A DNA stretch of 34,819 nt from Planctomycetota bacterium (GTDB lineage Bacteria > Planctomycetota > Phycisphaerae > Sedimentisphaerales > Anaerobacaceae), in the NCBI GenBank assembly GCA_026386835.1, contig JAPLMV010000183.1, forward strand, positions 1 to 34,819. Reading direction: 5' to 3'. The notes under the pieces are model-generated. The model was not told where the DNA came from. It did no database searches and saw only the letters and a program-made list of their open reading frames with translations. Position 1 is the first letter of the stretch. Every line of letters begins with the position of its first letter. This document shows, in pieces, positions 4,964-33,363 of this stretch. The translations under genes were made by a program, and so were the position numbers.

Positions 4964-4982
4964 GGATAGAAGAGGTTAAAAT

Positions 4983-8569: not shown

Positions 8570-8578
8570 AAGTTAAAA

Positions 8579-10489
8579 ATGTCAAATAAGACCTGTATCA
8601 TTACTTTTGAACCAAGCGGCCTTAATGTCCAAGTCCCCGTTGGGACTAATCTGCTTGAGGCGGCCCACAAAGCAGGGGTCTATCTAAGCAGTATCTGCGG
8701 CGGCGACGGCTGCTGCGGCAAATGCAAACTGATAATCAACCAGGGACAAATTGACAGCAGGCCCGGCACATCTCTTACCGAAGATGAAATAGACCAGAAT
8801 ATAGTTTTGGCCTGCAGGACCAGTGCCATTTCGGATATAACGGCAATGGTACCCAAAACGCACAGTCTAAAGACGGGCCGGATACTCACCGACACCAATA
8901 CTCACCGGCTCGGCGAGCTTGTCGACCAGGTGCGGGCGGAAGTTTTTGAGTTCGACCCGCTGGTTTACAAACTCACTGTTACAATGCGGCTGCCCTCTGT
9001 ACGTGACAACACCGCAGACCTTGAGCGTCTTTATATGGCCGTTCGGGAGAAAATTAACGCACCTGTAATAGAAACCGGCCTTGCTGTCATGCAAAAACTT
9101 TCAAAGGTACTCACTGCGGCAAACTACACGGTTGCGGTAACAATAGCAAAACATGACGGCGTGATGGAAATTATTGATGTCCAGCCGGCCAAATGCAGCC
9201 AGACGAGTTTTGCCGTTGCGGTCGATGTGGGAACAACGACGGTAGTCGCCCATCTTGTCGATTTGACAAACGCCGAAACTATAGATGCCGAGGCGATGTA
9301 CAACAGCCAGATAAAATTCGGAGAGGATTATATCCACAGAATCATCTATGGTGAACAGGAAGACGACGGGTTCAAAGAGTTGCAAAGTTGTATCATAAAT
9401 GACATAAATAGTCTAATTGGGACAATTGCATCGAGGCGGAAAATCGACCTGCAGGATATAACCGCTGTCGTCTGTTCCGGCAATACCGCAATGATACATT
9501 TCCTGCTGAATCTCGATTCAAAACGCATACGCAGAGAGCCGTATATCGCATCGGCGGGTTTCATACCGCCGATTCAGGCCTCGCAGGTCGGGATAAAAAT
9601 TAACAATAACGGCCTGTTGTATTGCCTGCCCAGCGTAGCGGCGTATGTCGGCGGCGACATTGTGGCCGGAGTATTGAGTACGCGGATTTATAACAAAACA
9701 GGTGTCAGTCTTTTCGTCGACTTGGGAACAAATGGAGAGGTGGTTTTAGGCAACTGCGACTGGATGGTCTGTGCATCAAGTTCGGCAGGCCCTGCCTTTG
9801 AAGGAAGCGGGGTAAAGTGCGGCATGCGTGCACAGACGGGGGCTATTGAGGAGCTGACGATTAACAGCAACGGGGACATCAAATTTAAGACCATTGGCGA
9901 TGTCAGACCAGTGGGCATTTGCGGCTCAGGTCTGCTGGATACCCTTGCAGAGCTTTTTGTAAATGGAATTATAGACAGGACAGGCCGATTCAAAAAAAAC
10001 AGCCGATGGAAATTAACTGAAGGCGGGGACGGCCTTGAGTTTGAGCTTTTCTCTCCAGGCACAGACGGGCCGGGGATAGTAATTACGCAGGCGGACATAA
10101 GTAATCTTATTCGCTCGAAGGCAGGGGTTTTTGCTGCGATAAAGGTGCTGATGAAAGCGATGGAGACTGAAACAGAAGACATTGAAATGGTTTATCTTGC
10201 AGGCGGATTCGGCAATTTCCTCAATGTTCAGCAGGCCGTTATTATCGGGATGCTGCCGGATGTACCTGCGGAAAAAATTAAATTCGTTGGCAATACCTCT
10301 ATCGCAGGGGCGAAAGCGGTTTTACTTAGCAAAAAGGCACACGAAACGGCAGAAAAAATCGCTCACAGTATGACTTATTTTGATTTGATGACTCATCCGG
10401 GCTATATGGATGAATTTATAAGGGCAAGTTTTTTACCGCACACGGACCTGTCGCTGTTCCCTTCGGCCCAGTGCGTGAAAACTGATTGA
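8579..10489 (+). CDS. acsV: Reductive activator of the corrinoid Fe-S protein (RACo; 2Fe-2S ferredoxin domain + ASKHA ATPase/DUF4445)
   Basis: 636 aa. It has an N-terminal plant-type ferredoxin motif (CGGDGCCGKCK ... LACRT) followed by ASKHA-like DVGTTT and DLGTNGE motifs. Its position between acsC and acsD matches RACo. Confidence 0.85.
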   Translation: MSNKTCIITFEPSGLNVQVPVGTNLLEAAHKAGVYLSSICGGDGCCGKCKLIINQGQIDSRPGTSLTEDEIDQNIVLACRTSAISDITAMVPKTHSLKTGRILTDTNTHRLGELVDQVRAEVFEFDPLVYKLTVTMRLPSVRDNTADLERLYMAVREKINAPVIETGLAVMQKLSKVLTAANYTVAVTIAKHDGVMEIIDVQPAKCSQTSFAVAVDVGTTTVVAHLVDLTNAETIDAEAMYNSQIKFGEDYIHRIIYGEQEDDGFKELQSCIINDINSLIGTIASRRKIDLQDITAVVCSGNTAMIHFLLNLDSKRIRREPYIASAGFIPPIQASQVGIKINNNGLLYCLPSVAAYVGGDIVAGVLSTRIYNKTGVSLFVDLGTNGEVVLGNCDWMVCASSSAGPAFEGSGVKCGMRAQTGAIEELTINSNGDIKFKTIGDVRPVGICGSGLLDTLAELFVNGIIDRTGRFKKNSRWKLTEGGDGLEFELFSPGTDGPGIVITQADISNLIRSKAGVFAAIKVLMKAMETETEDIEMVYLAGGFGNFLNVQQAVIIGMLPDVPAEKIKFVGNTSIAGAKAVLLSKKAHETAEKIAHSMTYFDLMTHPGYMDEFIRASFLPHTDLSLFPSAQCVKTD

Positions 10490-10503
10490 AAAGAAAAACA
10501 AAT

Positions 10504-11247
10504 ATGGCAACAACAATTGCAGTAAGCGGAAAAGGTGGTTCCGGCAAAACAACAATATCGGCGATGATTATACGCTCGCTGATGAAAAAACCGTCCAAAG
10601 CTATACTTGCTGTTGATGCAGACCCAAATTCGTGCTTAGGTCTTGCGATGGGAGTTATGCCGGAAAGCACCATAGCGGAAATTCGCGAGCAGACACGCGC
10701 AAAACCGGCTGCCAATGAAGGCCTCGACAAGGTGCGATCGGTTGAGTATGGGATTCAGCAGGCAGTTACCGAAGCAAAGGGTTTTGATTTGCTCACGATG
10801 GGAAGGCCTGAAGGGCCAAGCTGTTACTGTGCGGTCAATAACCTCCTGCGGAAGTTTCTCGATGACCTCAGTTCGGCATACGAATTTGTAGTTATCGATA
10901 ACGAAGCGGGGATGGAGCATTTGTCTCGCAGAACAACCAATAATGTTGACCTGCTTTTGATAGTGGCAGAACCAGGCCCGGTTGGAAAAGTTACCGCCAA
11001 AAGGATTTTTGAGCTTGCCAGGAAGCTGCCGATAGAAGTCAGGCAAATCGGCATTATATGGAACAGGACCGAGCTTGCTGACAGCGTGGATGGAATAGAA
11101 ACTTTCGGATGTGTGCCTTATGACAAAGCTGTTTTAGATGCAGCGATGCAGGGAAAAACGGTGCTTGATTTGGATGTGAATACACCGGCATTTGCTGCGG
11201 TACGAAGTATACTTGAGAGCAAAATAGGAAAAGTAAATAGAAAATAG
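10504..11247 (+). CDS. acsF: Second CooC-family Ni-insertion ATPase (ACS accessory protein)
   Basis: ORF 10486..11247. It has the Walker A motif SGKGGSGKTT and the CxC motif PSCYCAV. The ATG at 10504 avoids overlap with the upstream stop codon. Confidence 0.85.
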   Translation: MATTIAVSGKGGSGKTTISAMIIRSLMKKPSKAILAVDADPNSCLGLAMGVMPESTIAEIREQTRAKPAANEGLDKVRSVEYGIQQAVTEAKGFDLLTMGRPEGPSCYCAVNNLLRKFLDDLSSAYEFVVIDNEAGMEHLSRRTTNNVDLLLIVAEPGPVGKVTAKRIFELARKLPIEVRQIGIIWNRTELADSVDGIETFGCVPYDKAVLDAAMQGKTVLDLDVNTPAFAAVRSILESKIGKVNRK

Positions 11248-11263
11248 CATTGGAGGATTTCAG

Positions 11264-12223
11264 ATGCCAGTTCCTGAAGTTGCAGACAGTTTCAGCGGTT
11301 CGGTAACGAAAATTACGCTTGGTGCGGCAAAAGCCGGCGGCGGCACGCGAACGTCGACGATAACCGTAGGCGGCTCGCGCAATGTCGTTTATGGCGGCGC
11401 ACCGGACAACGCCGGCGAAAGGCCTGTCATTGCTATGGATGTTCTGGATATATGTCCAGACGACTGGCCCGATGCCCTTGTCGAACCATATAAGGATGTG
11501 CTTGGTAATCCCGTCGCCTGGGCGAAAAAATGTGTCAATGAATTCGGCGCCGATTTAATCTGCATCAAATTCGACGGCATTCATCCAGATAAAGGCGACA
11601 AAGATGCTGAACAGGCGGTAAAAGTTACACAGGATGTATTAAAGGCGGTCGGTGTGCCGCTTGTGCTGTGGGGCAGCGGAAATGCCGACAAGGATAATCA
11701 GGTCATGCCAAAGGTTAGCCAGGCCGCAAAAGGTGAGAACTGCCTCGTCGGTACGGTGACACAAGATAATTACAAGGCACTGACAGCGATAGCCCTTGCC
11801 GACGGCCACTGTCTTATTACCCATGCACCTCTGGACATCAACATCGCAAAGCAGATTAATATCCTTGTTTCCGATATGGGTTTCCCGCTTGAAAAGATAG
11901 TAACATTCCAGGCGACAGGTGCTCTTGGATACGGGATGGAGTATGCCTATTCGATTCAGGAACGTCAGCGGCTGGCGGCACTTGGCGGCGATAAGATGAT
12001 GGCAATGCCGGTCATCTGCGACGTGGGTTATGAGGCATGGCGTGCAAAAGAGGCGAAATTAGTGGATGCCCCGGCCGGCTGGGGAACTGTTCAGGACAGG
12101 GGACCGATGTGGGAGGCAACCACCGCAATATGTCTTCTTCAGGCAGGTGCAAATATAATCAGAATGCGTCACCCAACAGCGGTGGCTGCGGTTAAGAATT
12201 TTATACAACAGATTTGGCAGTAA
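11264..12223 (+). CDS. acsD: Corrinoid iron-sulfur protein small subunit (delta)
   Basis: 319 aa with a GGAGG RBS. It is a TIM-barrel CFeSP small-subunit-like sequence placed between acsF and acsE. Confidence 0.9.
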   Translation: MPVPEVADSFSGSVTKITLGAAKAGGGTRTSTITVGGSRNVVYGGAPDNAGERPVIAMDVLDICPDDWPDALVEPYKDVLGNPVAWAKKCVNEFGADLICIKFDGIHPDKGDKDAEQAVKVTQDVLKAVGVPLVLWGSGNADKDNQVMPKVSQAAKGENCLVGTVTQDNYKALTAIALADGHCLITHAPLDINIAKQINILVSDMGFPLEKIVTFQATGALGYGMEYAYSIQERQRLAALGGDKMMAMPVICDVGYEAWRAKEAKLVDAPAGWGTVQDRGPMWEATTAICLLQAGANIIRMRHPTAVAAVKNFIQQIWQ

Positions 12224-12264
12224 AAACTATTGAAAGCTGGAGATTTGGAAAGGAAAGGTTTGAT

Positions 12265-12996
12265 ATGATACTGATAGGAGAAAGAATTAACGGAATGTTC
12301 ACGGACGTCAAGCAGGCCATTGCCGACAAGAATAAAAAGGTCATTCAGGACCTTGCCCAAAGACAAACGCAGGCTGGTGCAACATATCTTGACGTAAATG
12401 TCGGCACCGCAGCCGCTGACCAGGAAGGCACTATTCAATGGCTGGTCGAAACACTGCTTAATTCGGCACCTTTGAATAAAAAGACCGATGAGGAAATATT
12501 ATACAAGTATATGGAAATGGCGGAAAAGGCAGGCCCAAAGGCAAATCTTATTGCCCTTGCAATGGATAAAAACGGCGTGCCGCAGGACACTGATACCCGC
12601 GTGGCGATAGCCGCTGAAATTCTGCAAAAAGCACTGGAAAGAGGGTTTGAAACGCAGAGGCTGTTCATCGACCCGATTGTTCTGCCTGTCAAGGTGCCCA
12701 ACGCTCAGACCCAGCCGGCAATTATCCTTGCGGCGATGGACCAGATTCGGCTTTTGGCAGACCCGCCGCCGCATATGACGGTAGGTCTCTCGAACCTTTC
12801 GCAGGGTGCAGCCGAGAGAAGTCTCATTAACCGTGTATTCCTCGCGATGGCTATGTCGCACGGCCTGGACTCGGCAATTGCCGATGTCTTCGACGAAAAT
12901 CTAATGAATGCCGTTGCCACTTGCGATATGTTAATGAACAGGCAGATATATTCCGACAGTTTCCTTAAAGTATATGCAACGGCGAACAAAAAATAG
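12265..12996 (+). CDS. acsE: Methyltetrahydrofolate:corrinoid/iron-sulfur protein methyltransferase (apparently about 24 aa shorter than canonical AcsE)
   Basis: ORF 12214..12996, trimmed to the ATG at 12265 (MILIGERINGMF, the canonical AcsE N-terminus). It retains the pterin-binding barrel motifs YLDVNVG, LFIDPIV, GLSNLSQ and LDSAIAD. The expected LDS...MINS segment is not found. Confidence 0.85.
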   Translation: MILIGERINGMFTDVKQAIADKNKKVIQDLAQRQTQAGATYLDVNVGTAAADQEGTIQWLVETLLNSAPLNKKTDEEILYKYMEMAEKAGPKANLIALAMDKNGVPQDTDTRVAIAAEILQKALERGFETQRLFIDPIVLPVKVPNAQTQPAIILAAMDQIRLLADPPPHMTVGLSNLSQGAAERSLINRVFLAMAMSHGLDSAIADVFDENLMNAVATCDMLMNRQIYSDSFLKVYATANKK

Positions 12997-13043
12997 CATA
13001 TAGGAAAAACGCTGCACAAATTACCAATCACGAGTCTTGAAAT

Positions 13044-14807
13044 ATGAACCTTGACCCCACAAAACTAAAGGGCTGGGAAATTGCCGAGCTTGCCGAGCAG
13101 CAGATGAAACCCATCAGCATGGTTGCTGCTGAATTAGGTCTGCAGGAGCAGGAAATTATACCGATGGGCAGGGCCATCGCAAAAGTTGATTACCGAAAGG
13201 TAATGGAACGGCTGACCGGCGACCACCAGGCCAAATATATCGACGTAACCGCTATTACACCAACACCGTTGGGTGAAGGCAAAACAACAACCACTATTGG
13301 TCTTGTCCAGGGTCTCGGTAAACTCAAAAAGCGGGTTGTCGGAGCAATAAGGCAGTCTAGCAGCGGCCCGACATTCAACATAAAAGGTTCCGCAGCGGGA
13401 GGGGGACTTGCCCAGTGTATTCCCCAGACTCCTCTTGCGATAAGATTGACCGGCGACATCGACTGTGTAACAAATGCACATAATATTGCGATGACTGCTC
13501 TTACATCCCGAATGCAGCATGAACAAAATTACAGCGACCAGGACCTTGTAAAACGAGGTCTTAAACGTCTTGATATCGACCCCAGTCGCGTCCAGTTCAA
13601 ATGGCTAATGGATTTTTGCGCACAGGCACTGCGAAATATCACCATCGGCAAAGGCGGAAAGATGGACGGTGTGGAGATGGAATCGGGCTTTGCGATTTCC
13701 GCATCCAGCGAGGTTATGGCGATTCTGGCGGTCGCAAAGGACTTGAAAGATATGCGAGAGCGCATGGGCAGAATCGTTGTGGCTTACAATAAGAAAGGCA
13801 ATGAAATCACCACCGCAGACCTACAGGTCGATGGGGCGATGACGGCATGGATGGCCGATGCCCTCAATCCCAATCTCCTGCAGACCATCGAAGGTCAGCC
13901 GATATTCGTGCACGCAGGACCTTTCGCAAATATCGCCATAGGACAAAGTTCGATTGCCGCAGACCTGCTTGGCACTAAATTGGCCGACTACCACATTACC
14001 GAAAGCGGTTTTGCCGCCGATATCGGCTTCGAAAAATTTTGGAACTTAAAATGCAGAATATCGGGCCTCAAACCCAGCGCCGTCGTCATTGTGGCAACCG
14101 TCCGTGCGCTGAAGATGCACGGCGGCGGCCCAGCAGTAAAGCCGGGAATGCCCCTCGATGATGCGTATGTTAAGGAAAATCTCGGCCTTGTCGAAAAAGG
14201 CTGCGAAAATCTTATTGCTCATATCGATATAGTTAAAAAAAGCGGCGTAAAGCCGGTAGTGTGTATAAACAGCTTTTACACCGATACCCAAGCCGAAATC
14301 GAACTGGTGCGAAAAATCGCCGATAAGAACGGCGCTTTGCCTGCTGTCTCGGAGCACTGGCTAAAAGGCGGTGAAGGGGCACTCGAACTGGCGCAGGCGG
14401 TCATGTCGGCCTGCAATGAGAAAAATAATTTCAGATTCCTCTACGATTTGAATACACCGCTTAGAAAACGCATAGAACTGATTGCAAAAGAAGTTTACGG
14501 CGCTGACGGCGTAAGTTACAGCGATACGGCACTTGAAAAAGCCAAAGCCATCGAGGCCGACCCGCAGGCAAATCATCTCGGTACATGTATGGCCAAGACG
14601 CATCTTAGCCTGTCCGACGACCCGAATCTCAAGAATAGACCGAGGGGCTGGACTCTTGCCATTCGCGACATTTTAGTGTACAAAGGAGCCGGCCTTGTCG
14701 TCCCGATATCTGGAACAATTAAACTTATGCCAGGCACAAGTTCAGACCCGGCATTTCGCAGAATCGACGTGGACGTCAATACCGGAAAAGTACACGGACT
14801 GTTTTAA
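13044..14807 (+). CDS. fhs: Formate--tetrahydrofolate ligase
   Basis: 587 aa with the P-loop TPTPLGEGKTTT, plus GPFANIA, VATVRALKMHGG and a C-terminal GLF. Confidence 0.9.
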   Translation: MNLDPTKLKGWEIAELAEQQMKPISMVAAELGLQEQEIIPMGRAIAKVDYRKVMERLTGDHQAKYIDVTAITPTPLGEGKTTTTIGLVQGLGKLKKRVVGAIRQSSSGPTFNIKGSAAGGGLAQCIPQTPLAIRLTGDIDCVTNAHNIAMTALTSRMQHEQNYSDQDLVKRGLKRLDIDPSRVQFKWLMDFCAQALRNITIGKGGKMDGVEMESGFAISASSEVMAILAVAKDLKDMRERMGRIVVAYNKKGNEITTADLQVDGAMTAWMADALNPNLLQTIEGQPIFVHAGPFANIAIGQSSIAADLLGTKLADYHITESGFAADIGFEKFWNLKCRISGLKPSAVVIVATVRALKMHGGGPAVKPGMPLDDAYVKENLGLVEKGCENLIAHIDIVKKSGVKPVVCINSFYTDTQAEIELVRKIADKNGALPAVSEHWLKGGEGALELAQAVMSACNEKNNFRFLYDLNTPLRKRIELIAKEVYGADGVSYSDTALEKAKAIEADPQANHLGTCMAKTHLSLSDDPNLKNRPRGWTLAIRDILVYKGAGLVVPISGTIKLMPGTSSDPAFRRIDVDVNTGKVHGLF

Positions 14808-14824
14808 TTTGCCAGGAGCGATAG

Positions 14825-15706
14825 ATGACTGCACGGATTATAGATGGCGCAAAAGTCGCTGCCGACATGCGGGCCGAACTGAAAGAACACGTTGCAGAAC
14901 TTAAGAAACAAGGCATTGTGCCCGGCCTGGGTGTTATTCTTGTCGGACAGGACCCCGCTTCAAACTCTTATGTTACCGCCAAAGAACGCGCCTGCGCAGA
15001 GATTGGGATTTATTCCGACGACAACCGCCTGCCCGCACAGACATCTCAGAAAGATTTGATTGCCCTGATAAAGAAAATGAACGCCGACCCCAAAATCAAC
15101 GGCATCCTCGTGCAGCTTCCTTTACCCAAACACCTAATCGAGGACCAAGTCCTTATGACCATCAGCCCCGACAAGGATGTGGATGGTTTTCATCCGACAA
15201 ATGTCGGCAGAATGGTCGTGGGCGAAAAGGCGTTTTTGCCCTGTACGCCGCACGGCGTTATTCAATTACTGATTCGCAGCTCCGTCACCATCGATGGTTC
15301 ACATGTGGTAATTGTCGGCAGAAGCAACATTGTGGGCAAACCACTTGCGAATATGCTCATTCAAAAAAGTCCGACCGGCAACGCCACTGTAACTATTTGT
15401 CATACCCGCACAAAAAACCTTGCCTTCCATACAAAACAAGCTGACATAGTCATCGCTGCTGCGGGCAAACCCAACACTATTACTGCGGATATGATAAAGC
15501 CCGGTGCAGTGGTTATCGATGTGGGTGTCAATCGTATTGAGGATTCGACGAAAAAAAGCGGCTACCGTCTTGTGGGTGACGTTGATTTTGAAAATGTAAA
15601 GGAAAAGGCAAGCCTGATTACTCCTGTCCCCGGCGGCGTCGGACCAATGACCATAACTATGCTGCTTTACAACACCGTCGAATCTGCAAAACGGAACGCT
15701 GAGTAG
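14825..15706 (+). CDS. folD: Bifunctional methylene-THF dehydrogenase / methenyl-THF cyclohydrolase
   Basis: 293 aa with an AGGAG RBS and the motifs [27 protein letters not shown] and [10 protein letters not shown]. Confidence 0.95.
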
Positions 15707-21108: not shown

Positions 21109-22434
21109 CTATTTTTGTTGCGGTATCTCGGACGAATCACCTATACTTAAATCTCCGTAAATCACACGATAGGTACCTGTATCATCGGATTTCCACCAGC
21201 AAATCGGCTCGTTTGTTTCGCCAAGCCGAATGCCGTCTCCCGCGTAACCCCACTCGCCATAGATTCTTTGCTGCTGGGCAAATACAAGAGCCTTTAGTAT
21301 CTTATTCAGTACAGGCATAGCCAGTTCAAGTTCATCCACTGGGTTACCGCCTTTGGCGAATTTTTCCACCAGTATCGGCTTAACCATGTTTGGGTCGACG
21401 AGGTCTTTAATTGCCGATGGGAAGAATCCATCCGACATTTCCGACCATAAGGCAAGTACTTCAATCAGGCCTTGCTCGTCAGGATTAGACACATCAAGCT
21501 GTTCTTGCTCCACAGCGTAATCAGGCGGCGGCTCGATGCTGAAAAGCGACGGGTCAAGGTTGGCATCCCATACAAAATCGCTTATAACCATAATCATCTT
21601 TTTTACCATACCGCCACCGCCGTAAAACGAGATGCCTTTTGTGATTATCATTTCTCCTTCTTTTACCTCTTCGAAATCATCTGAACGTAAGGCCATCTCC
21701 GGCGATATAATCTCTTTATCCGGATTCGGGATAATTTCCCTTTCTACCCGAACCGGCAGGTTGGTTTTGGGGTCAACCCATACGGTGGTTTTTTCATATT
21801 CCTGCTGAAAGAGGAATACATCGACTGCCTGACCATCGAGCACCTGCTGCCTCGTGAATTGTCCCGTTCTGTCTTTTAGTTTGGTAACCCAATTGAGATA
21901 ATTGAAAGGCTGCTTTCTTTGTTTCATCCCTATTCGTTGAGTTATTGTTGCCTTTTTCTCGTTAGGATACAATTGCAGATCTCTGTTCAGAGCCAAATCG
22001 GTGATTGAAATTGAGTTATTAAAAGTTGTGCGAATATGACCCGGCTCCATTACCATCTCTTCCACTGTAGTGGGAGGATTGTCCTCAGTTTTGATGGTTT
22101 CCCTGTAAGTTACCGTCCTGGCATTATAAATCTGTTCCATAACATCTGCCCAGACGACAGCCGTTCCATCAATCCGTACGCCGAATTGATGCAATCCGAA
22201 AAGTATTCCAATAATTATTACCGCAGCCGCTGCAAACCTTAACATCTTAGTTTTCATAATTGACCCCCATATTCTTACTATTTTTATTTGGTTCGAGATT
22301 TCTTTCTTTTCTGACATACTGACAAAAACCCTGCGGACCCGCTCCATAGCCCGTGCGGTTGACTCCGGGCTGGGCTTGATTTGTGAAATCAACTCTAATC
22401 GGCGCAGAATTTCCTGTTCGTCAGTCCTCGGCAT
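21109..22434 (-). CDS. Putative anti-sigma factor: single-pass membrane protein with a large extracytoplasmic domain
   Basis: ORF 21109..22473. The ATG at 22434 overlaps the sigma gene stop by 14 nt, suggesting translational coupling. It has a short cytoplasmic N-terminus, one TM segment (MLRFAAAAVIIIGILFGL) and about 360 aa outside the membrane. The call rests on position and topology only. Confidence 0.55.
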   Translation of the reverse strand: MPRTDEQEILRRLELISQIKPSPESTARAMERVRRVFVSMSEKKEISNQIKIVRIWGSIMKTKMLRFAAAAVIIIGILFGLHQFGVRIDGTAVVWADVMEQIYNARTVTYRETIKTEDNPPTTVEEMVMEPGHIRTTFNNSISITDLALNRDLQLYPNEKKATITQRIGMKQRKQPFNYLNWVTKLKDRTGQFTRQQVLDGQAVDVFLFQQEYEKTTVWVDPKTNLPVRVEREIIPNPDKEIISPEMALRSDDFEEVKEGEMIITKGISFYGGGGMVKKMIMVISDFVWDANLDPSLFSIEPPPDYAVEQEQLDVSNPDEQGLIEVLALWSEMSDGFFPSAIKDLVDPNMVKPILVEKFAKGGNPVDELELAMPVLNKILKALVFAQQQRIYGEWGYAGDGIRLGETNEPICWWKSDDTGTYRVIYGDLSIGDSSEIPQQK

Positions 22435-22969
22435 CACGTCCCCCTTTTTTTGAATAACGTAATTCTTTGTCACTTAGTAAATATCGAATGTGCATCAGCG
22501 CCTTAAAACACAAGGCACATACCTGATTTGGCGTCTTGCCCATTTCGCCGGCTATATATTCATAGCTCTGCTGCTGGATATATCGCATTACAAATGCCTC
22601 ACGGGATGCGCCCCGAAACTGCGCTATGGCGCCAAGCACCTCTTCTATTTCTTCGTTTTGGGCGAATTTGCTCGACGGGGAAATCAAATCTGAAACCGGC
22701 TCAGGAACATCGTCCAGCCGGCAGGCACTTTTATCTCTGGCCTTGCGCCAGTCGAAAGCCATGTTGACTGCTGTCCTGTGTGCATAAGCAGCCAAGTCTT
22801 TGACCTTATCAAGACCTTTGAAATTGGCAAGTTTTACAAACAATTCCTGCATTAGTTCCTCGGCGATATCTTCGCGCAGCACCAACCGTGCCAGCAACGT
22901 GTGCAACTCCGTCTCTGAACGCTCAAAAACCTCTAAAAGTCGCTGCAAACCACCCTGCAACACAAACAC
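22421..22969 (-). CDS. ECF (group 4) RNA polymerase sigma factor
   Basis: 182 aa. The region 2 pattern is DIAEELMQELFVKL ... AYAHRTAVNMAFDWRK. Region 4 is AFVMRYIQQQSYEYIAGEMGKTPNQVCALCFKAL. The true start is probably GTG or TTG 2-3 codons inside the ORF, downstream of the AGGAG. Confidence 0.85.
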   Translation of the reverse strand: MFVLQGGLQRLLEVFERSETELHTLLARLVLREDIAEELMQELFVKLANFKGLDKVKDLAAYAHRTAVNMAFDWRKARDKSACRLDDVPEPVSDLISPSSKFAQNEEIEEVLGAIAQFRGASREAFVMRYIQQQSYEYIAGEMGKTPNQVCALCFKALMHIRYLLSDKELRYSKKGGRDAED

Positions 22970-23217
22970 TCCTGACTAATTCACTTCTATTAGTAAGACT
23001 GTTGACTACGTCCAAACACAACCGGAATTTTGCCTTTTTTTAAAAATTTTTCAATATTTTATAAAAAACGGCCAAAACGTGCTAAAAAGGAGGGTGGGAT
23101 TAGCTCTACGGAGTAGATATTTTTTAAAAATGCTATGCTATGGTAAAAATAGCATACGGCGTTGTTGGACGGCGAAAGGGTTGGATGGTTAAACGGTAAA
23201 ACGGTAAAGAGAAAAAT

Positions 23218-23289
23218 GGTAGGGTAATGGTTCGACTGGTTCGACAAGCTCACCACAGGCTCACTCACCATAAAAGACCCTACCCTACC
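23218..23289. repeat. REP-like hairpin element
   Basis: GGTAGGGTA (23218-23226) pairs with TACCCTACC (23281-23289). The arms enclose a tandem GGTTCGAC GGTTCGAC and CTCACCACAGGCTCACTCACC. Tandem AACGGTAAA repeats lie just upstream (23190-23208). Confidence 0.5.
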
Positions 23290-23308
23290 AGACTCCGTCG
23301 AAATTTCT

Positions 23309-24901
23309 TTATGAAAGCATTATATTCTCCATATAGTCCAGCGCATGGGGATTTTTCTCAAGTACCGTGCAGTAGTCGACTAACAATTTATGTGCCCGAA
23401 AGCGATGCCCTTGGCAGGCGGTTTTTTTGAGAAGTCCGGTCGGCTTTTCTCCATCGGATATGTTAGACCAGCATCCCAATTTGCATGTATGCAGACACCA
23501 GCAATACCGGCACTGGTCTTTGGTAAAGTCCACCCAGTCGCTCAGTAACTGCTTTATTTTAGCTATATCCAAGCCATTCTCGACGTCGCCGATTTTCATA
23601 TATTCACTCTCGGGAACTCGCTCACAGGGCCAGTAGTCGCCGTCGATGCTCAGGTACGTCCGCTGCGTGCCAGGGACACACGTCGACAGCGAGCAGAAAC
23701 GTTCGGGAAGAATTGTGTGATTATGGATATGGCACTGATAAATCTGGAATCTTTTATGGAAAAAAAGCCAGTCCTGCTCGTTCATCTCCCTTTGCAGCCG
23801 GTATGCCGTGGCCGATACATCTGAATTAATCCTGCCCGCAGCGAGATTGTTGATAAATCTTTTATACAGCAAATCGAAGCCGGTTATTTTTCCAGTTGGA
23901 CTAATCTTGCTTCCGACCTGGTCCACAAAGGCCGCCTTTACACCGATATGCCTGTCGAATAAATCGCAGGAAACTAAGAATTTATCCAGAATATCGATAT
24001 CTAACGGCGGCGCCATTACCATATTGAAGCTTAGTTTGTCGTTTGTCCTATATTGCGGGTACTTGTCGAGAAATGCCCTTATGTTGGATGTTACCTTTTG
24101 CCAGGTGGGCAGGCCGTTTTTGTAGCGGCGATACCGGTCGTGGATTTCTCTGGGACCATCTATGCTGACTACAATGCTGAAGTTTTCTGAGGCAAGAAAA
24201 TCCGCTGCATCGCCGGTTAATAATGAGCCGTTTACGGTAATTGAAAAGATAATGTCTTTGCCCCTGTCGCTTTTCTTGACATAGCCGACACATTTTTTGA
24301 TAAGAGGCAGGTTTAACAGTGGCTCACCTCCATAGAAACCTATCGACCTGATTTTGGCAGAGCCGCTTTGCTGCATATAGCAGTCGATACCTTTTTTTGC
24401 AATGCTCCATTTCATTTTTCGTCTCGAAAGGGCATGCCGTCCGGCGTATTGGCCGCTGTAAACACAATAGCAGCATCGAAAATTGCAGTCCTCGGTAACA
24501 AGTAAAATAAGTATTTTGCGTTTATTGTTCAGCTTTTGCCTTATATCATCCTCGGTCATAGTCAGCTCAACCTGCGGGCGATTCGAGAGAAACAAATTTT
24601 TATCCCGCTGAGCAATTGCAATTTCGTCACACGCCGATGAGATTTCAGCCATACTGAATTGCCCGCGATACTTAGAAAAGATTTCTTCTTTGCCAAGTAT
24701 TCCGAAATCGCCGATAATTTCCCACACAACGGGAGTAACCCGCACTATTTTCATCGTATTAACGTCATAGATGTACTTGTTTTCCCTCGTTTCAAACCGG
24801 TGTACAAACGCCGTCGCAGGATTTTCCACAACATCGGAAGTTTTTTCTTCGATGTCAGAGGATAAGGGCATATTTCCAGAACACTTTCCAATCTCAGTCA
24901 T
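23309..24901 (-). CDS. Radical SAM/SPASM-domain peptide maturase with an N-terminal RRE-like extension
   Basis: 530 aa with an AAGGAAA RBS. The CX3CX2C motif CNFRCCYC is encoded at 24464-24487. The C-terminus has a full SPASM signature (CVPGTQRTYLSIDGDYWPC = CX12GX4C, then CRYCWCLHTCKLGC = CX2CX5CX3C, then a later Cys). About 110 aa precede the rSAM core (FVHRFETRENKYIYDVNTMKIVRVTPVVWEII...), as in RiPP recognition elements. Confidence 0.9.
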   Translation of the reverse strand: MTEIGKCSGNMPLSSDIEEKTSDVVENPATAFVHRFETRENKYIYDVNTMKIVRVTPVVWEIIGDFGILGKEEIFSKYRGQFSMAEISSACDEIAIAQRDKNLFLSNRPQVELTMTEDDIRQKLNNKRKILILLVTEDCNFRCCYCVYSGQYAGRHALSRRKMKWSIAKKGIDCYMQQSGSAKIRSIGFYGGEPLLNLPLIKKCVGYVKKSDRGKDIIFSITVNGSLLTGDAADFLASENFSIVVSIDGPREIHDRYRRYKNGLPTWQKVTSNIRAFLDKYPQYRTNDKLSFNMVMAPPLDIDILDKFLVSCDLFDRHIGVKAAFVDQVGSKISPTGKITGFDLLYKRFINNLAAGRINSDVSATAYRLQREMNEQDWLFFHKRFQIYQCHIHNHTILPERFCSLSTCVPGTQRTYLSIDGDYWPCERVPESEYMKIGDVENGLDIAKIKQLLSDWVDFTKDQCRYCWCLHTCKLGCWSNISDGEKPTGLLKKTACQGHRFRAHKLLVDYCTVLEKNPHALDYMENIMLS

Positions 24902-24964: not shown

Positions 24965-25159
24965 CAGATTTGGCTTTTCTGCTCTATATCTTTGTCATTC
25001 TAAAAAAAAGGCGTGTCTGGTTACGGCCTGACTTGTATAAAACAATACTTTACTTTAGTGCTCAATAGGTGCACCTAAAGGATTCGGGTTGCAGCAATCA
25101 GGCACGCCCTTGCAACCTTTGGCAAAGAAATAAGGTTGTTAGAGTACCTCAGGGAGGCC

Positions 25160-25339
25160 TCATCCACCTTTTACGCCTCCGAAGGTACTTGCTATTGCAC
25201 TGCTGGAGTTGGAAGCGAAATTGGTGTTAACGCACGCTTCTGTGCAACCGCAGGTACACGTACATCCGCACGAGCATCCTCCTCCGTCAGGCAGGTTCTC
25301 CATACTTGGAGTTTCATGGAAATTAGTTACATCAATCAT
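25160..25339 (-). CDS. Cysteine-ladder small peptide, candidate RiPP precursor (59 aa, absent from the ORF track)
   Basis: Hand translation of the minus strand gives AAGGAG (25352-25347), a 7-nt spacer, an ATG at 25339 and a TGA at 25162-25160. The peptide is MIDVTNFHETPSMENLPDGGGCSCGCTCTCGCTEACVNTNFASNSSSAIASTFGGVKGG. It lies 53 nt after the upstream gene and 258 nt before the rSAM/SPASM gene on the same strand. Confidence 0.75.
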   Translation of the reverse strand: MIDVTNFHETPSMENLPDGGGCSCGCTCTCGCTEACVNTNFASNSSSAIASTFGGVKGG

Positions 25340-25392
25340 TTTAAATCTCCTTAAAAAAAGTTAATAATTCTTTCGTAGAAAAAACGGTTTAA

Positions 25393-26475
25393 CTACTTAA
25401 GACCCGGGTTTTCGCTATATGTAACAATTTCAGTTATGTCGCCGGCTAATTCCCCGCGTAATAACGCATTTCGCTGTTGAGGACCAAGAAACGTCGGCAG
25501 GCGTCTGCTGTATCTGTACTCGTCTGGGTATTTATTCGAAGGAACCAGATAAACCTGAAAGCCGAACTTATATTTCTTATCCAGACTGTTTTTGAAGTTG
25601 GCCATGGTCTCGCTGTATCGTCCCCAGCCGCCTATGGAGGCATTATCCCGCAGCCATTGGATAACTTCCTTTGCTGCGGCAGTATTATTCCGCTGGAGAA
25701 GAAACGCCAAGTCGCAGCCGCACAAAAAATCATTCATTGTGGGATTTCGTCCGCTGTTAATCTGGCTTATGATTTGCTCAAACTGTCTGGCTCGCAGGTC
25801 CAGAAGCGTTTTTTTAATCTCACCGTTTGGAACTGTTTTATTTGTTTCCTTGTCAAGCTTAACTATCAGATTGGCGGCCTGTATGGCCTCAATCAATTCA
25901 TTTGTTATGGTCAAATTATCCGGATTGCGCTGGTGGCCGTATTCTAGCAGAATCCTTGCCATATACGCATCTCGATACGCAGTACGCGAAAGGTCTCCTC
26001 CTGCCAGCCAGAAATTTCCCAGCAAGTTATGAGCAAGCTCGACAAGTTTCTCATCCGAAAGGTTCGTGATGTCTGTTTTTGCCGTAAGTTCTTTCAGTAA
26101 TTGCTCACGGACCTGAGAATAATCAGGCCAGGTCGCCATAACCTCATCCTGGGTCTTCCATATCCGCTCTGCGGCTGCTGAATTTATCAGCAGGTCTATC
26201 TGCTGATCATCAAAAGGCTTAGGCAGTTCCGCTTGCGAGATTGTATCTTTAACCGGCAACTGGTTTTTGTGGTCTTCCACAACAGCTATGTGTTCAACCT
26301 TTGCTTTGTGGCTATCCGTCAAACACACGTTGTTAGCATTCTTTATGCCGATTAACGGCGTTTTTTTAATATCGGGCAATTTTTTACCCTTGCCCTGCCA
26401 TATGAAAAATACCGCAGTTGGTACAAAGACCAGGATAACCATAAGCAGCAAACCTGTTTTAGTCGTAATTTTCAT
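25393..26475 (-). CDS. Hypothetical membrane-anchored protein (N-terminal TM, helical extracytoplasmic domain)
   Basis: 360-aa ORF with a GGAAA RBS. It has an N-terminal anchor (GLLLMVILVFVPTAVFFIW). No catalytic motif or family recognised. It lies immediately upstream of the Cys-ladder ORF. Confidence 0.7.
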   Translation of the reverse strand: MKITTKTGLLLMVILVFVPTAVFFIWQGKGKKLPDIKKTPLIGIKNANNVCLTDSHKAKVEHIAVVEDHKNQLPVKDTISQAELPKPFDDQQIDLLINSAAAERIWKTQDEVMATWPDYSQVREQLLKELTAKTDITNLSDEKLVELAHNLLGNFWLAGGDLSRTAYRDAYMARILLEYGHQRNPDNLTITNELIEAIQAANLIVKLDKETNKTVPNGEIKKTLLDLRARQFEQIISQINSGRNPTMNDFLCGCDLAFLLQRNNTAAAKEVIQWLRDNASIGGWGRYSETMANFKNSLDKKYKFGFQVYLVPSNKYPDEYRYSRRLPTFLGPQQRNALLRGELAGDITEIVTYSENPGLK

Positions 26476-27253: not shown

Positions 27254-27351
27254 CTTATTTCCTCAAACGTAGTCTGTTAAATTGACTATAGTACCTTCCA
27301 TTGTTTTCGTGCAGTTACTTCAACTATCGAACATCTATTGGCATCGCGGGT

Positions 27352-27484
27352 AAAGCCACGTCTAATCTCGTGCTGGGTCTGTCGTTCAACCTTGAGTCGA
27401 CAACAGCAAACCCAGCGAAGAAGAGGAGAGAGAGAGAGTTTTTTGCCTCTTTATAAATTCACGGTTAAAACCGTGCTGGCTTTC
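27352..27484. repeat. Conserved 133-nt non-coding element, copy A (possible structured sRNA)
   Basis: Near-identical to 27656-27788. It contains the complementary pairs AAAGCC/GGCTTT (termini), GCTGGGT/ACCCAGC and CACGGTT/AACCGTG, plus an (AG)6 tract followed by T6. Confidence 0.8.
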
Positions 27485-27655
27485 GTGCCGGGCCTGTTAA
27501 CTCGTTTTGGTCAACCAAGCCCAGCTTGGGGGAAAGAAAACTCCTCGCGAGCATATATATAATCACGGTCCAATACTGACCATGCCTGCTCTCAATTTAG
27601 CATTATCAAAGAGCGAACTATCGAAAAAATACCAACCACTATTTTAATCGCAGCA

Positions 27656-27788
27656 AAAGCCGCGTCTAATCTCGTGCTGGGCCTGTCATTCAACTTTGAG
27701 TCAACAACAGCAAACCCAGCGAAGAAAAGGAGAGAGAGAGAGAGAGTTTTTTGCCTATAAATTCACGGTTAAAACCGTGCTGGCTTTC
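27656..27788. repeat. Conserved 133-nt non-coding element, copy B
   Basis: Same architecture as copy A, 304 bp downstream. It differs by a few point substitutions, (AG)8 instead of (AG)6, and a 4-nt deletion after the T6GCCT. Confidence 0.8.
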
Positions 27789-28181: not shown

Positions 28182-29603
28182 ATGCAAAGCGAACCTGAAT
28201 TATTAAAGTCCAGTTTGGCAGGGAATAGGGAAGCTTTCGGCGTGATTGTTAAGGGCTATCAATCCCTGATTTGCGCAATCACCTACAGCTCAACCGGAAG
28301 TCTCAGTAAAAGCGAAGAACTGGCACAGGAAACATTTCTGATAGCCTGGCGAAAACTTGGTCAACTCAAAGACTTGAATAAGTTTAGAGCATGGTTATGC
28401 ACAATTGCACGGAACGTCGTCGGCCAATCAATCAAGCGTGAACAAAGGGACATAATACATAATGCCCAGTCCATCGAAAACCTGAAAACAATTGGTGCAG
28501 CAAAACCACAGCCATGCGATTTGGCGATAAGTAAGGAACAGGAGGCAATTATTTGGCAGGCTCTGCGTGATATTCCCGAACAATTTCGTGAGCCGATGGT
28601 TTTGTTTTATCGTGAACACCAATCTGCAAAGACTGTGGCTCAATTTCTTGGAATTTCTGAAGACGCTGCCAAACAACGGCTGTCGCGAGGCAGGCGGATA
28701 CTCAAAGAAAATGTCGCCGCACTTGTGGAAGAAAAGCTCGAACGAACCACGCCAGGAAAGGTTTTTACTATCGCAGTTATAGCTGCGCTGCCGGGTATTA
28801 TCCCACAGGCAGCGAACGCTGCAATCGCCGGAATAGCTGCAAAAAGTTCCATTGCGGTCAAATCGGCTGTTTTTGCAAATTGGCTCGGTATATTAGGACC
28901 GCTGGTCGGGCTTATAGGAATGCTTTTAGGAATTCGAGCCAGCCTCAAAAATGCTGCCTCTCCACGGGAATGGAAGTTTATTAACTGGACCGCGTTTATA
29001 CAAATTACCTATTGTTTTGTATTAGCAGCCGTTACGATTCCTTTTGTTTTATGGTGGCGATTGTGGCGCCACCACTCATCTTGGCTTATTCTTCTTATAT
29101 ATGTCCTTTTCCTTCTCCCCCTAATCCCTTTTACAATCTGGGCAAATCGTCGGGAGAAACAGATACAGATAGAAGATGGTACTTACATCGAGCCGCAGTA
29201 CCGGATGCTCAGGATGACCAGCAGAGAAATTTATGCGGCATTCGCAGGAGCTGTCTTCGGTTCCCTTCTGTGGTTATATAGGGTTGCAGTTGAGGCTCAG
29301 GACTGGATAGTGTTGTGCGTAACGATAGCTGCTGGTTTTTTGATTTTTTCCCTCGCAGTTAAAGTCACTTTGCGGGCTAAAGAACATGGCTTTAAGATTG
29401 CCATCGGTACATTTATTGCTGTTGGCTTGCTGCAGCTCGCAATAGTTAATCTGCGGTGGGATAGATGGGTTTATATCCTTAAAGCTAAGAATATCACTCT
29501 TTGGCAAATTAATTTTATCATCATAGCATTTGTGGTGCTGCTGGCGTTGATAGCTCTATTTTTCGATTTCCAGCATCGCAGGAATAGTAAAAAAAACGAT
29601 TAG
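28182..29603 (+). CDS. ECF sigma factor fused to a C-terminal polytopic membrane domain
   Basis: 473 aa. The N-terminal 190 aa hold sigma70 region 2 (EELAQETFLIAWRKL ... AWLCTIARNVV) and region 4 (REPMVLFYREHQSAKTVAQFLGISEDAAKQRLSRGRRIL). About 280 aa with many hydrophobic helices follow (for example VFTIAVIAALPGII, WLGILGPLVGLIGMLLGI, SWLILLIYVLFLLPLIPFTIW, INFIIIAFVVLLALIALFF). Confidence 0.8.
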   Translation: MQSEPELLKSSLAGNREAFGVIVKGYQSLICAITYSSTGSLSKSEELAQETFLIAWRKLGQLKDLNKFRAWLCTIARNVVGQSIKREQRDIIHNAQSIENLKTIGAAKPQPCDLAISKEQEAIIWQALRDIPEQFREPMVLFYREHQSAKTVAQFLGISEDAAKQRLSRGRRILKENVAALVEEKLERTTPGKVFTIAVIAALPGIIPQAANAAIAGIAAKSSIAVKSAVFANWLGILGPLVGLIGMLLGIRASLKNAASPREWKFINWTAFIQITYCFVLAAVTIPFVLWWRLWRHHSSWLILLIYVLFLLPLIPFTIWANRREKQIQIEDGTYIEPQYRMLRMTSREIYAAFAGAVFGSLLWLYRVAVEAQDWIVLCVTIAAGFLIFSLAVKVTLRAKEHGFKIAIGTFIAVGLLQLAIVNLRWDRWVYILKAKNITLWQINFIIIAFVVLLALIALFFDFQHRRNSKKND

Positions 29604-31677: not shown

Positions 31678-31742
31678 TCCGCCTTCTTTTTTATTCCACT
31701 TTTTTGTACTGGCACAGAATCTGCCGTCCTGCCGCTCAGGCC

Positions 31743-33363
31743 TTACTCTTTCTCTTGGCTGTCTAACTGATGCAGGTGCTTTTGCAGGCGAGGGTTCAGT
31801 TCATCCAATTGCTTTTGGTCAACTTCGCTCGGTGCATCGGTCAAAAGGCACTGACCTCGCTGAGTCTTTGGGAACGCAATGACATCTCTGATGTTATCGG
31901 TGCCTGTCAAAAGCATAATCATTCTGTCAAGGCCCAGGGCAATTCCGCCGTGCGGCGGAGCGCCGTATTCTAGCGCCTTTAAGAAGAACCCGAACTGCTC
32001 GTGTGCCTGCTTCTTTGAAATGCTCGTCCTGGTTCCACTCAAACAGCGGGAAATCCACAATCCAGACAAATTCGAATTGGGCTGGGTCATAAAGATTCAG
32101 GTCTTTGCCCAGTTTGCATCTTAATGGTGCAAGGGCCTTATTGGCTGCCTTTTCGGTATCAGCAATAATCAGAATCAGGTCGTCGTCCTTTGCGACGAAG
32201 CGTTCAATTATCTGTTGCTGCTGCTCCTGGCTGAAAAACTTGGTGATGCTGCTGTTAAGTCCTGACTTACCGTTTTCGTTTTTGACCTTAAACCAGGCTA
32301 GGCCTTTGGCGCCGTAGTCGCCGACAAAATCGGTGAGGGTTTTTTCAATATCGCTTCTCGAATATTTTCCGCCGCCCGGAGCGCATAGCCCTTTTACGAT
32401 GCCGCCTTTTTCAACAGCCGATGTAAATACCTTAAACGTGCTCTGCTTTGCGATATCCGATATGTCCCTTAGCTTCATATCGAAACGCAGGTCAGGCCGG
32501 TCGATTCCATAATCGTCCGCCGCCTGCTTATATGTCATTCGGCGAATCGGCGTTTTGACTTCGATGCCGAGTATTTCCTTCCAGATTTTTGCAATCAATA
32601 CTTCGTGGAGGCCTATGACGTCGTTGGTGTCGATAAAACTCATCTCAACATCTATCTGCGTGAATTCCGCCTGCCTGTCCGCCCGCGGGTCTTCATCGCG
32701 GAAACAACGCACAATCTGAAAATATTTATCGACGCCGCTGACCATAAGAATCTGCTTAAAAAGCTGCGGCGACTGTGGAAGCGCATAAAAACAGTTACGC
32801 ATAAGCCTGCTCGGCACGAGAAAATCCCTCGCGCCTTCGGGGGTGCTTTTTGCGAGCATCGGCGTCTCTATTTCCCAGAAGCCCAGCTTGTCGTAATAAT
32901 CGCGGGCAAGCTTTGTTACGCGATGGCGGATTTTCAGCCTCTGCTGCATTTGGGGTCTGCGAAGGTCGATATATCGGCTGGCAAGACGAGTCTCCTCGGC
33001 GGTCTTGTCGGCATTGTCGATTTCAAAGGGGGGTGTCTTCGCAGTGTTGAGTATCTCCATCTGCTCGACATTCACCTCGATTTGACCAGTGGGGAGTTTG
33101 GGGTTCTCAAGACCCTGGCCTCTTGGCCCAACCACACCCTGGGCTGCTATTACCCATTCGGTACGAACCGTTCGTGCCAGCTTGTGGGCATCAGGGCATT
33201 TTTCAGGATTGAAGACAAGCTGTGTAAGACCCTCGCGGTCGCGAAGGTCGAAAAATACCAGATTGCCGTGGTCGCGGTAGGAATGTACCCATCCCGCTAA
33301 AATTACTTTTTTGCCGGCGTCTTCGAGCCGAAGCTGGCCGCAATTATGTGTGCGTTTCAACAT
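31743..33363 (-). pseudogene. aspS: Aspartyl-tRNA synthetase with an internal out-of-frame deletion (two overlapping ORF fragments)
   Basis: ORF 31927..33363 encodes the OB-fold, motif 1 and motif 2 (FRDEDPRADRQAEFTQIDVEMSF) up to [11 protein letters not shown], then runs into nonsense. ORF 31743..32090 is homologous only from [38 protein letters not shown] (motif 3). The HHPFT and GGGSIRIH segment expected between them is absent. Confidence 0.85.

Follow-up and report, generated by a model that had tools for sequence, protein, structure and literature searches.

A putative planctomycete branch of the CcpA/CcpM-like peptide family: a radical SAM/SPASM enzyme beside an alternating-cysteine precursor

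What does a large radical SAM enzyme with a peptide-recognition domain modify in a planctomycete, and by which chemistry? The question is raised by a minus-strand open reading frame of 530 residues at 23309..24901 of the window, that is, the whole stretch of 34,819 nucleotides that was analysed. The gene starts with ATG, has AAGGAA ahead of it, and had been singled out as encoding a radical SAM protein in the original prediction, an assignment that holds. Its CNFRCCYC stretch lies exactly where it had been placed (24464..24487, minus strand; residues 139-146) and supplies the CX3CX2C SAM-cluster motif C139/C143/C146. In 45 homologues sharing 32-86% identity, these three cysteines and seven further ones in the SPASM domain are invariant. 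The PF04055 search that had been advised gives 49.1 bits (cutoff 29.5), and the AF2 model (pLDDT 89.7, pTM 0.88) matches the folds of CteB and anSME. Motif, domain match and fold thus place the enzyme in the radical SAM superfamily.

The seven SPASM cysteines define a twin-cluster region at residues 403-496 (23414..23695, minus strand), with the arrangement C408-x12-G421-x4-C426, C464-x2-C467-x5-C473-x3-C477 and a distal C496. This is the full SPASM signature that had been read from the sequence, and it makes the enzyme a SPASM-domain radical SAM protein with the signature for two auxiliary clusters. The TIGR04085 model detects the domain at 33.7 bits (cutoff 27). Two other recommended models, PF13186 for SPASM and PF05402 for PqqD, found no match in the whole protein, nor in its isolated termini at E<=10; we regard both misses as false negatives because TIGR04085, the motifs and the structure support the two features. 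C403, which would complete the ligation of auxiliary cluster I (Aux I), is a cysteine in just 20 of the 45 homologues. Aux I of CteB has an open site that binds a substrate cysteine (PMC6231123), and the seven-cysteine SPASM domain common to both enzymes implies an open site here as well. The spacing X12-G-X4 / X37 / X2-X5-X3 / X18 is, in addition, nearly equal to that of RumMC, X13-G-X4 / X36 / X2-X5-X2 / X18 (PMC6779426).

At the other end of the protein, the expected N-terminal extension is present, although it comprises 129 residues ahead of the radical SAM core and not 110: residues 1-23 are predicted to be disordered, 33-101 form a RiPP recognition element (RRE; 24599..24805, minus strand) and 102-129 a linker. 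In the AF2 model the RRE has a beta-beta-beta-alpha-alpha-alpha topology at pLDDT >90 (strands 33-37, 42-46 and 51-55; helices 57-62, 71-78 and 84-101). phmmer pairs residue 29 with residue 3 of CteB (E 1e-36), and residues 33-104, searched by themselves, hit NF040492, a model related to ScfB, at its RRE end (positions 4-75, E 1.8e-9). A PqqD-like peptide-recognition element, as originally suspected, is therefore borne out by the predicted fold together with the homology to CteB and the ScfB model. The structural comparison with CteB, also proposed at the outset, yielded the best fold match in Foldseek (E 4e-23, 494 columns), followed by anSME, which lacks an RRE. By predicted fold and homology, the enzyme belongs to the RRE-containing RiPP maturases and is predicted to bind a leader.

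The peptide substrate that these features had led the original prediction to infer has a counterpart 259 bp upstream of the enzyme gene, a Cys-rich reading frame of 59 residues on the same strand (25160..25339, minus strand). Its Shine-Dalgarno sequence, AAGGAGA at 25346-25352, is conserved. The peptide reads MIDVTNFHE...GGGCSCGCTCTCGCTEAC, followed by a Ser/Ala/Asn-rich tail of 23 residues, and divides into a leader (residues 1-21, MIDVTNFHETPSMENLPDGGG; 25277-25339), a core with cysteine at every second position (residues 22-36, CSCGCTCTCGCTEAC; 25232-25276) and the tail (residues 37-59; 25163-25231), all on the minus strand. The window contains a single alternating-Cys run, against none in each of 20 shuffles, and no second precursor was found in it. 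Enzyme and peptide are co-located and co-oriented, and the peptide combines a leader that is conserved with a core that varies, as expected of a RiPP maturase and its cognate precursor. From this arrangement, the Shine-Dalgarno sequence and the existence of homologous peptides, we conclude that the 59-residue precursor is very probably the substrate of the 530-residue enzyme. The original prediction did not mention this reading frame, and a library of 1.84 billion proteins yielded four relatives.

Homologous Cys-rich peptides adjoin 15 of 16 close homologues of the enzyme, and alternating-Cys reading frames occur beside homologues in Planctomycetota, Chloroflexota, Desulfobacterota and Bacillota; 1.88 Mb of such loci contain 32 alternating-Cys runs, with none in five shuffles. 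A metagenome scan returned at least two close loci among the matches listed. Across the precursor peptides the Shine-Dalgarno sequence, the leader and the placement of the cysteines are conserved, with variable residues in between. The first Cys lies at a nearly constant distance from the start (mostly 17-24 residues), usually after a Gly. Peptides with more cysteines tend to have longer tails (rho 0.57, p 1e-4), a correlation drawn from phylogenetically related peptides that simple length scaling could also explain; Cys number shows no correlation with leader length, and every peptide has at least three tail residues per Cys. Cysteine number is evidently not tightly constrained, since at locus L167, where the enzyme is 81% identical, the core has only three.

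The surrounding genes provide additional clues. In all close loci examined, the gene next upstream from the precursor encodes an accessory protein of 360 residues (25393..26475, minus strand), with an N-terminal membrane anchor, a disordered linker of about 60 residues and an all-alpha, weakly TPR-like domain at residues 90-300. Its counterparts in L003, L168, L169 and L004 are found by phmmer at E 1e-44 to 1e-76, it has only 11 word-sharing homologues, and no Pfam or NCBIfam family matches it. The AF2 core reaches a pLDDT of about 80-95; the best PDB match (E 0.2) conveys a vague TPR likeness, and no protease fold is apparent in the model. We also considered TIGR04066 as an identity for this protein and rejected it (HHalign probability 0.4%). 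Downstream of the enzyme gene, an ECF sigma factor (22421..22969, minus strand; TIGR02937, 60 bits) is a conserved partner of the cassette, with orthologues in the same position in L167, L166, L001 and L168 (E 1e-50 to 1e-101). Overlapping the sigma gene is the reading frame of a 454-residue membrane protein (21109..22473, minus strand), which has no family match in Pfam or NCBIfam, has orthologues in L167, L168, L170, L166 and L001 (E 1e-28 to 1e-215), and is called anti-sigma-like on the grounds of its position and topology. In L004 and L169 the corresponding ECF/anti-sigma pair is of the FecR type. The pair presumably regulates or senses the peptide system. In relatives the radical SAM gene is followed by one for an MsbA-like ABC exporter; no exporter, exporter remnant or leader peptidase is present in the window, whose lineage has lost the exporter.

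To which known system does this cassette correspond? Family models score the enzyme at 329 bits for CcpM, 242 for RumMC, 165 for the SCIFF maturase, 164 for PapB and 97 for anSME. Lack of an RRE, or clustering with anSME or cofactor enzymes, had been named as evidence against the original reading; the enzyme has an RRE and groups with peptide maturases. CcpA/CcpM of Bacillota is a predicted system, defined bioinformatically by TIGR04065, TIGR04068, TIGR04066 and TIGR04069. CcpM (TIGR04068) is the best-scoring family and aligns over the full length (328.9 bits, residues 32-515), short of the 500 bits set as curated cutoff. The same model gives 517-675 bits for enzymes that adjoin (C-x)n peptides in Bacillota, and 288-350 for Chloroflexota and Desulfobacter enzymes. 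The likeness extends to the substrates, as the alternating-Cys peptides that adjoin Bacillota CcpM also end in Ser/Ala/Asn-rich tails, and TIGR04065 detects some of them (cutoff 26 bits; L010 scores 44.4 and L057 25.5); the window peptide gives no match to this model at E<=10. The Paenibacillus locus likewise has an ECF sigma factor, together with an MsbA-like exporter (PMC10731318). In contrast, the leaders differ (MI(D/E)VT(N/S)F in the window's branch, MKKLxKK...(E)AY in Bacillota CcpA), the enzyme is about 60 residues longer than CcpM, and the host, judged from AspRS matches, is a Phycisphaerae-like planctomycete and not a member of Bacillota. AspRS and CODH are both frameshifted, which may reflect indel errors in the assembly. 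The window cassette also lacks a subtilisin-like protease, and its unrelated membrane-anchored all-alpha protein stands where CcpM cassettes have TIGR04066 and TIGR04069, neither of which matches any protein of the window cassette (L027 has TIGR04066 at 344 bits). On present sequence comparisons, the system is best described as a putative unannotated planctomycete branch of the CcpA/CcpM-like peptide family, outside the curated models.

The other relatives bear on the chemistry. The literature searched contains no product structure for CcpA/CcpM, only genome-mining predictions (PMC9062424, PMC10731318), and the chemistry of the CcpM-like group consequently rests on analogy. RumMC1/RumMC2, which make the sactipeptide ruminococcin C in Ruminococcus gnavus, form the second-best family: residues 34-527 align, the length is similar (model 510) and the SPASM spacing nearly identical. 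In RumC the Cys22-x-Cys24 pair is bridged to downstream residues, residue 31 and Asn35, forming a hairpin, and the acceptors vary (PMC6779426). The two differ in other respects: the score is far below the RumMC cutoff of 720, the leaders are unrelated, and RumC has four cysteines in two hairpins whereas the peptides described here have 6-12 consecutive alternating cysteines in one block. The SCIFF maturase CteB (PDB 5wgg, thermocellin) is, in sequence as well as in fold, the nearest enzyme with a solved structure, and has the same three domains (RRE, radical SAM core and twin-cluster SPASM), but identity is about 21%, the SCIFF model stays below its cutoff of 425, and the SCIFF precursor has another Cys pattern with no alternating run. 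anSME (PDB 4k36-4k39) has the radical SAM core and twin-cluster SPASM fold, but lacks an RRE, has a fully ligated Aux I and acts on sulfatases. The characterised families among the top matches (RumMC, SCIFF maturase/CteB, PapB and QhpD) all use cysteine as the thioether sulfur donor.

In this context, we put forward that the window encodes a RiPP cassette in which leader capture by the RRE is followed by thioether bridging from the core cysteines to the tail, a reading that we favour with some reservation, by analogy with characterised maturases. The N-terminal leader (MIDVTNF...) would bind RRE residues 33-101 as an added beta-strand, as suggested by CteB. The SAM cluster would cleave SAM to a 5'-deoxyadenosyl radical, which would abstract hydrogen from an acceptor in the C-terminal tail, rich in Ser/Ala/Asn/Thr/Gly, and sulfur from one of the core cysteines would then trap the resulting carbon radical. 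Given that only seven SPASM cysteines are invariant, this core cysteine probably occupies the open coordination site of Aux I, and the electron would exit via auxiliary cluster II. Repetition of the cycle for up to seven cysteines (C22 to C36) would produce a hairpin with many thioether staples, S-to-C-alpha (sactionine) linkages like those of ruminococcin C being the most likely. That the enzyme forms thioethers of some kind is, on the same analogies, fairly probable; a Cys-to-tail sactionine hairpin specifically is a more tentative proposal, to which we give somewhat less than even chances. Assignment as a sactisynthase is only by analogy, from the RumMC score, the similar SPASM spacing and the way Cys number rises as the tail lengthens. 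The identity of the tail residues is not conserved among the precursor peptides, which fits C-alpha abstraction yet points to no acceptor.

In an alternative scenario the same enzyme and substrate would yield a ranthipeptide-type product, with thioethers to C-beta or C-gamma, as CteB makes on Thr and PapB on Asp/Glu. CteB being the closest solved structure, the similar scores of the SCIFF maturase and PapB models, and tails rich in Ser, Thr, Asn and Asp all speak for such a product. In known ranthipeptides the acceptor is a set number of residues away from the Cys, as with CX3D in freyrasin. The 40 peptides compared share neither an acceptor residue nor a spacing of this kind, and the C-alpha enzyme RumMC scores higher over a full-length alignment; we thus consider C-beta or C-gamma linkages improbable, and retain Cys-to-tail sactionine bridging as the preferred reading.

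A third possibility is that the alternating cysteines form a metal- or Fe-S-binding or redox module, metallothionein-like in its CxC pattern, the enzyme installing some other modification; the peptide, not a bacteriocin in this case, would help the cell to handle metals or would signal at the envelope. CxC repeats are well known to bind metals through their thiolates. Moreover, the cassette is always linked to the ECF sigma/anti-sigma pair and to the membrane-anchored helical-repeat protein, a dedicated exporter is missing from the window's lineage, and no immunity gene or protease is recognisable. The FecR/ECF linkage is weakened as an argument by the fact that such pairs are very common in Planctomycetota generally, the characterised relatives all make thioethers, and a tail that scales with Cys number lacks an obvious role in a pure metal-binding peptide. 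This makes a metal or redox module a decidedly improbable alternative to thioether bridging. Finally, an anSME-like or cofactor-maturation enzyme, generating formylglycine from Cys/Ser on a protein beside an incidental small reading frame, is scarcely credible despite anSME being the second-best structural match, since the TIGR03942 match (97.4 bits, cutoff 349) is confined to core residues 132-277, the enzyme carries an RRE, the absence of a nearby sulfatase noted originally extends to all 26 scanned reading frames (every non-nested one of at least 120 residues in the window plus the 59-residue peptide), and the precursor conserved beside close homologues effectively refutes it.

Independently of these readings, the product of the enzyme and its (C-x)n peptide could differ from an ordinary bacteriocin-type sactipeptide, which we regard as rather unlikely. 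One such product may be a rigid thioether zipper, with 6-12 consecutive alternating cysteines each stapled to the opposite strand; we know of no characterised RiPP with this cross-link density and topology. Another may be a modified poly-thiolate peptide acting as a metal-binding or envelope signal, read by the ECF sigma/anti-sigma pair and the membrane-anchored helical-repeat protein. If either is true, a new RiPP class would extend across Planctomycetota, Chloroflexota, Desulfobacterota and Bacillota, and a chemistry could be assigned to the CcpM family, which a RiPP network survey lists only as a "previously annotated" enzyme (PMC9062424). What defines the substrates of the family is an alternating C-x-C-x-C run with a tail of small residues behind it. 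The system extends well past Bacillota, to anaerobic Planctomycetota and further phyla in which the present curated models fail to detect it, and its non-Bacillota branch has its own leader and accessory proteins. To our knowledge, planctomycete RiPPs are almost unexplored. The 530- and 59-residue genes form a defined enzyme-substrate pair open to expression, for which bridging by thioethers makes a falsifiable prediction, namely that the peptide loses 2 Da up to seven times over and retains no free thiol; a densely stapled hairpin, if real, would be a useful scaffold.

The spacer between the precursor and enzyme genes also contains an extended hairpin of about 105 nt that ends in a U-run (24996..25115, minus strand). 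A riboswitch or other known RNA was considered for this spacer and set aside, as Rfam has no match to it, its single-sequence fold is no better than shuffles (z -0.24), and covariation is scant. A simple terminator scan of its minus strand found nothing, and nhmmer recovers the hairpin in the close clade only. Its sequence is highly conserved in the window, L166, L001 and L167, and the consensus fold has 37 pairs with compensatory changes in three, four sequences being too few for covariation. We consider it a candidate partial terminator or mRNA-stabilising element.

The 530-aa reading frame at 23309-24901 on the reverse strand encodes a radical SAM enzyme (rSAM) whose SAM-cluster motif, CNFRCCYC (residues 139-146; 24464-24487, reverse strand), lies exactly where the original prediction placed it. 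The complete SPASM signature claimed there also holds, with the pattern C408-x12-G-x4-C426, C464-x2-C467-x5-C473-x3-C477 and C496. Across 45 aligned homologues (32-86% identity), the three SAM-cluster cysteines and exactly seven SPASM cysteines are invariant; C403, a possible eighth ligand, is Cys in only 20 of the 45. Among the domain models suggested for the enzyme, PF04055 and TIGR04085, the curated SPASM model (33.7 bits; cutoff 27), match, and PF13186 and PF05402 do not, isolated termini included; the only Pfam matches are PF04055 and PF13353. An N-terminal RRE-like (PqqD-like, leader-binding) domain had also been proposed, and the structural comparisons support it. From the 45-sequence alignment, AlphaFold2 gave a confident model (pLDDT 89.7, pTM 0.88), with residues 1-23 disordered and residues 33-101 forming three strands followed by three helices, the RRE topology. 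CteB is both the best PDB sequence match (5wgg; phmmer, E 1e-36, query residue 29 falling on CteB residue 3) and the best structural match to the model (Foldseek, E 4e-23, 494 columns), with anSME, ChlB, TigE and SuiB ranking below; the isolated N-terminal 129 residues match the RRE end of an ScfB-related model (E 1.8e-9). CteB combines RRE, radical SAM and SPASM domains with an open site at Aux I, one of the two auxiliary clusters of the SPASM domain, and its leader pairs with the RRE as a beta-strand (PMC6231123).

Family models likewise favor a peptide maturase over an anSME, as originally argued. The enzyme is matched over its full length by the NCBIfam models of CcpM (TIGR04068; 328.9 bits, residues 32-515), RumMC (241.8 bits), the lachnocin (197) and nif11 (174) maturases and, lower, the SCIFF maturase (165), PapB (164) and QhpD (150), each score falling under the respective cutoff, whereas the anSME model reaches 97 bits over the core alone. 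No scanned ORF of the window contains a sulfatase domain, in agreement with the claim that no such gene is nearby. The N-terminus is an RRE, and the enzyme groups with neither anSMEs nor cofactor-type enzymes.

The substrate is very probably a 59-aa peptide, MIDVTNFHETPSMENLPDGGG-CSCGCTCTCGCTEAC-VNTNFASNSSSAIASTFGGVKGG, encoded 259 bp upstream of the enzyme (25160-25339, reverse strand), with a conserved AAGGAGA 7 nt ahead of its ATG. We fetched the neighborhoods of rSAM homologues, taking as close those loci whose enzyme is at least 38% identical to that of the window. Equivalent peptides adjoin the enzyme in 15 of these 16 loci, the exception being a 3.5-kb contig. They share an N-terminal MI(D/E)VT(N/S)F-type leader, 3-12 Cys at every second position, and a Ser-, Ala-, Asn-, Thr- and Gly-rich tail; conservation covers the leader and the Cys codons, with variable residues between the cysteines. 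The 1.88 Mb of fetched loci contain 32 runs of at least five alternating Cys and five shuffles contain none; the window contains one such run and 20 shuffles none. Only four relatives of the peptide emerged when 1.84 billion representative proteins were searched exhaustively. Beside an 81%-identical enzyme (locus L167), the precursor (5509-5640) keeps the MIDVTNF leader with its core cut to CMCLVC and a 9-residue tail, which makes it a substrate that is either degenerate or minimal. Another locus (L169, 9093-16745; 39% identity) has four CcpM-like rSAM paralogues in tandem, together with two precursors. The precursor cores start with CCEC and deviate from strict alternation, which suggests a division of labor among the enzymes.

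The alternating-Cys precursor of the enzyme and the cassette conserved around it go beyond the original prediction. Upstream of the precursor, a 360-aa protein is conserved clade-wide (phmmer E-values of 1e-44 to 1e-76 for distant loci). A membrane anchor at its N-terminus is followed by a disordered linker and an all-alpha domain, and the protein has no significant structure or family match. Comparison with TIGR04066, an accessory protein of the Bacillota CcpA/CcpM system, revealed no relation. Downstream of the enzyme, overlapping ORFs encode an ECF sigma factor and an anti-sigma-like membrane protein of 454 aa; orthologues of both stay with the cassette in loci with as little as 38% rSAM identity. 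Elsewhere in the window (28182-29603, forward strand), a 473-aa protein joins an N-terminal ECF-type sigma region to a long hydrophobic, apparently multi-pass C-terminal region; a 501-aa sigma protein near the cassette of another locus (L003) is similar, judging from domain matches only. In most relatives an MsbA-like ABC exporter without a peptidase domain follows the enzyme gene (e.g., 7637-9556 in locus L001); it is absent, with no remnant, from the corresponding interval of the window (22970-23308), and absent from the two closest relatives. The spacer between precursor and enzyme is predicted to fold into a hairpin of about 105 nt (24996-25115, reverse strand; 37 pairs, a 12-13 bp GC-rich closing stem, then a U-run). 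Among four close relatives its conservation exceeds that of the peptide core; it is restricted to the close clade and matches no Rfam family, and one possible role is that of a leaky terminator setting the precursor-to-enzyme ratio.

Alternating-Cys peptides also lie beside enzymes more distantly related to that of the window, in Bacillota, Chloroflexota and a Desulfobacter. The Bacillota enzymes exceed the CcpM cutoff (517-675 bits), and TIGR04065, the model of the CLI_3235-family precursor, matches four of the five Bacillota peptides scanned (one above cutoff, one borderline, two weaker); non-Bacillota enzymes score 288-350 bits on the CcpM model, and their peptides give no TIGR04065 match. 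A canonical Paenibacillus locus holds an ECF sigma factor, an MsbA-like exporter, CcpM, TIGR04066, a TIGR04069-like gene, the precursor and a subtilisin-like protease (layout compared with PMC10731318); the window lacks TIGR04066, TIGR04069 and the protease. The cassette is an unannotated, non-Bacillota variant of the uncharacterized CcpA/CcpM RiPP family. In the literature searched, CcpM appears only as a previously annotated family or is assumed to make a sactipeptide, and we found no determined product.

All characterized families among the best rSAM matches make thioethers from Cys, and the modification is probably a thioether of some kind. The SPASM spacing is nearly that of RumMC; in the RumMC substrate, residues 31 and 35 are joined to a C-x-C pair within a hairpin, and the acceptors vary in identity (PMC6779426). 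As in CteB, only seven SPASM cysteines are conserved. Among the 40 peptides compared, those with more Cys tend to have longer tails (rho 0.57, p 1e-4), a relationship weakened by the phylogenetic relatedness of the peptides, and leader length shows no such correlation; none of them has fewer than three tail residues per Cys. On these grounds we propose that the RRE would capture the precursor leader, that the enzyme would iteratively abstract hydrogen from tail residues, and that Aux I-bound Cys sulfur would capture the resulting radical, yielding a hairpin stapled multiple times. A Cys-to-tail sactionine hairpin specifically is a more tentative reading of the same comparisons, and the 40 peptides allow no acceptor residue to be named.

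The window also carries a complete-looking Wood-Ljungdahl cluster (2150-15706, forward strand) with CooC, CODH, ACS beta, CdhD-type subunits, a RACo activator, a pterin-binding methyltransferase, formate-THF ligase and FolD. Its AspRS is about 80% identical to that of Phycisphaerae MAGs, and the AspRS matches assign the window to an uncultured Phycisphaerae-like planctomycete. The CODH catalytic subunit (2973-4963, forward strand) is interrupted near 4470, giving two overlapping ORFs, and AspRS (31678-33363, reverse strand) has 478 aa versus 602 in homologues, its C-terminus lying in another frame near 31930-32000. These frameshifts represent either assembly indel errors or pseudogenes, and indel errors in the assembly are thus possible; despite this, the 530-aa enzyme and the 59-aa peptide match the lengths of their closest homologues. 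Finally, two direct copies of about 150 nt (27330-27484 and 27634-27788, spacing 304 nt) occupy the intergenic region between a response regulator gene and the sigma-membrane fusion gene, each with a (GA)n run, T6 and a small hairpin (CACGGTTAAAACCGTG).
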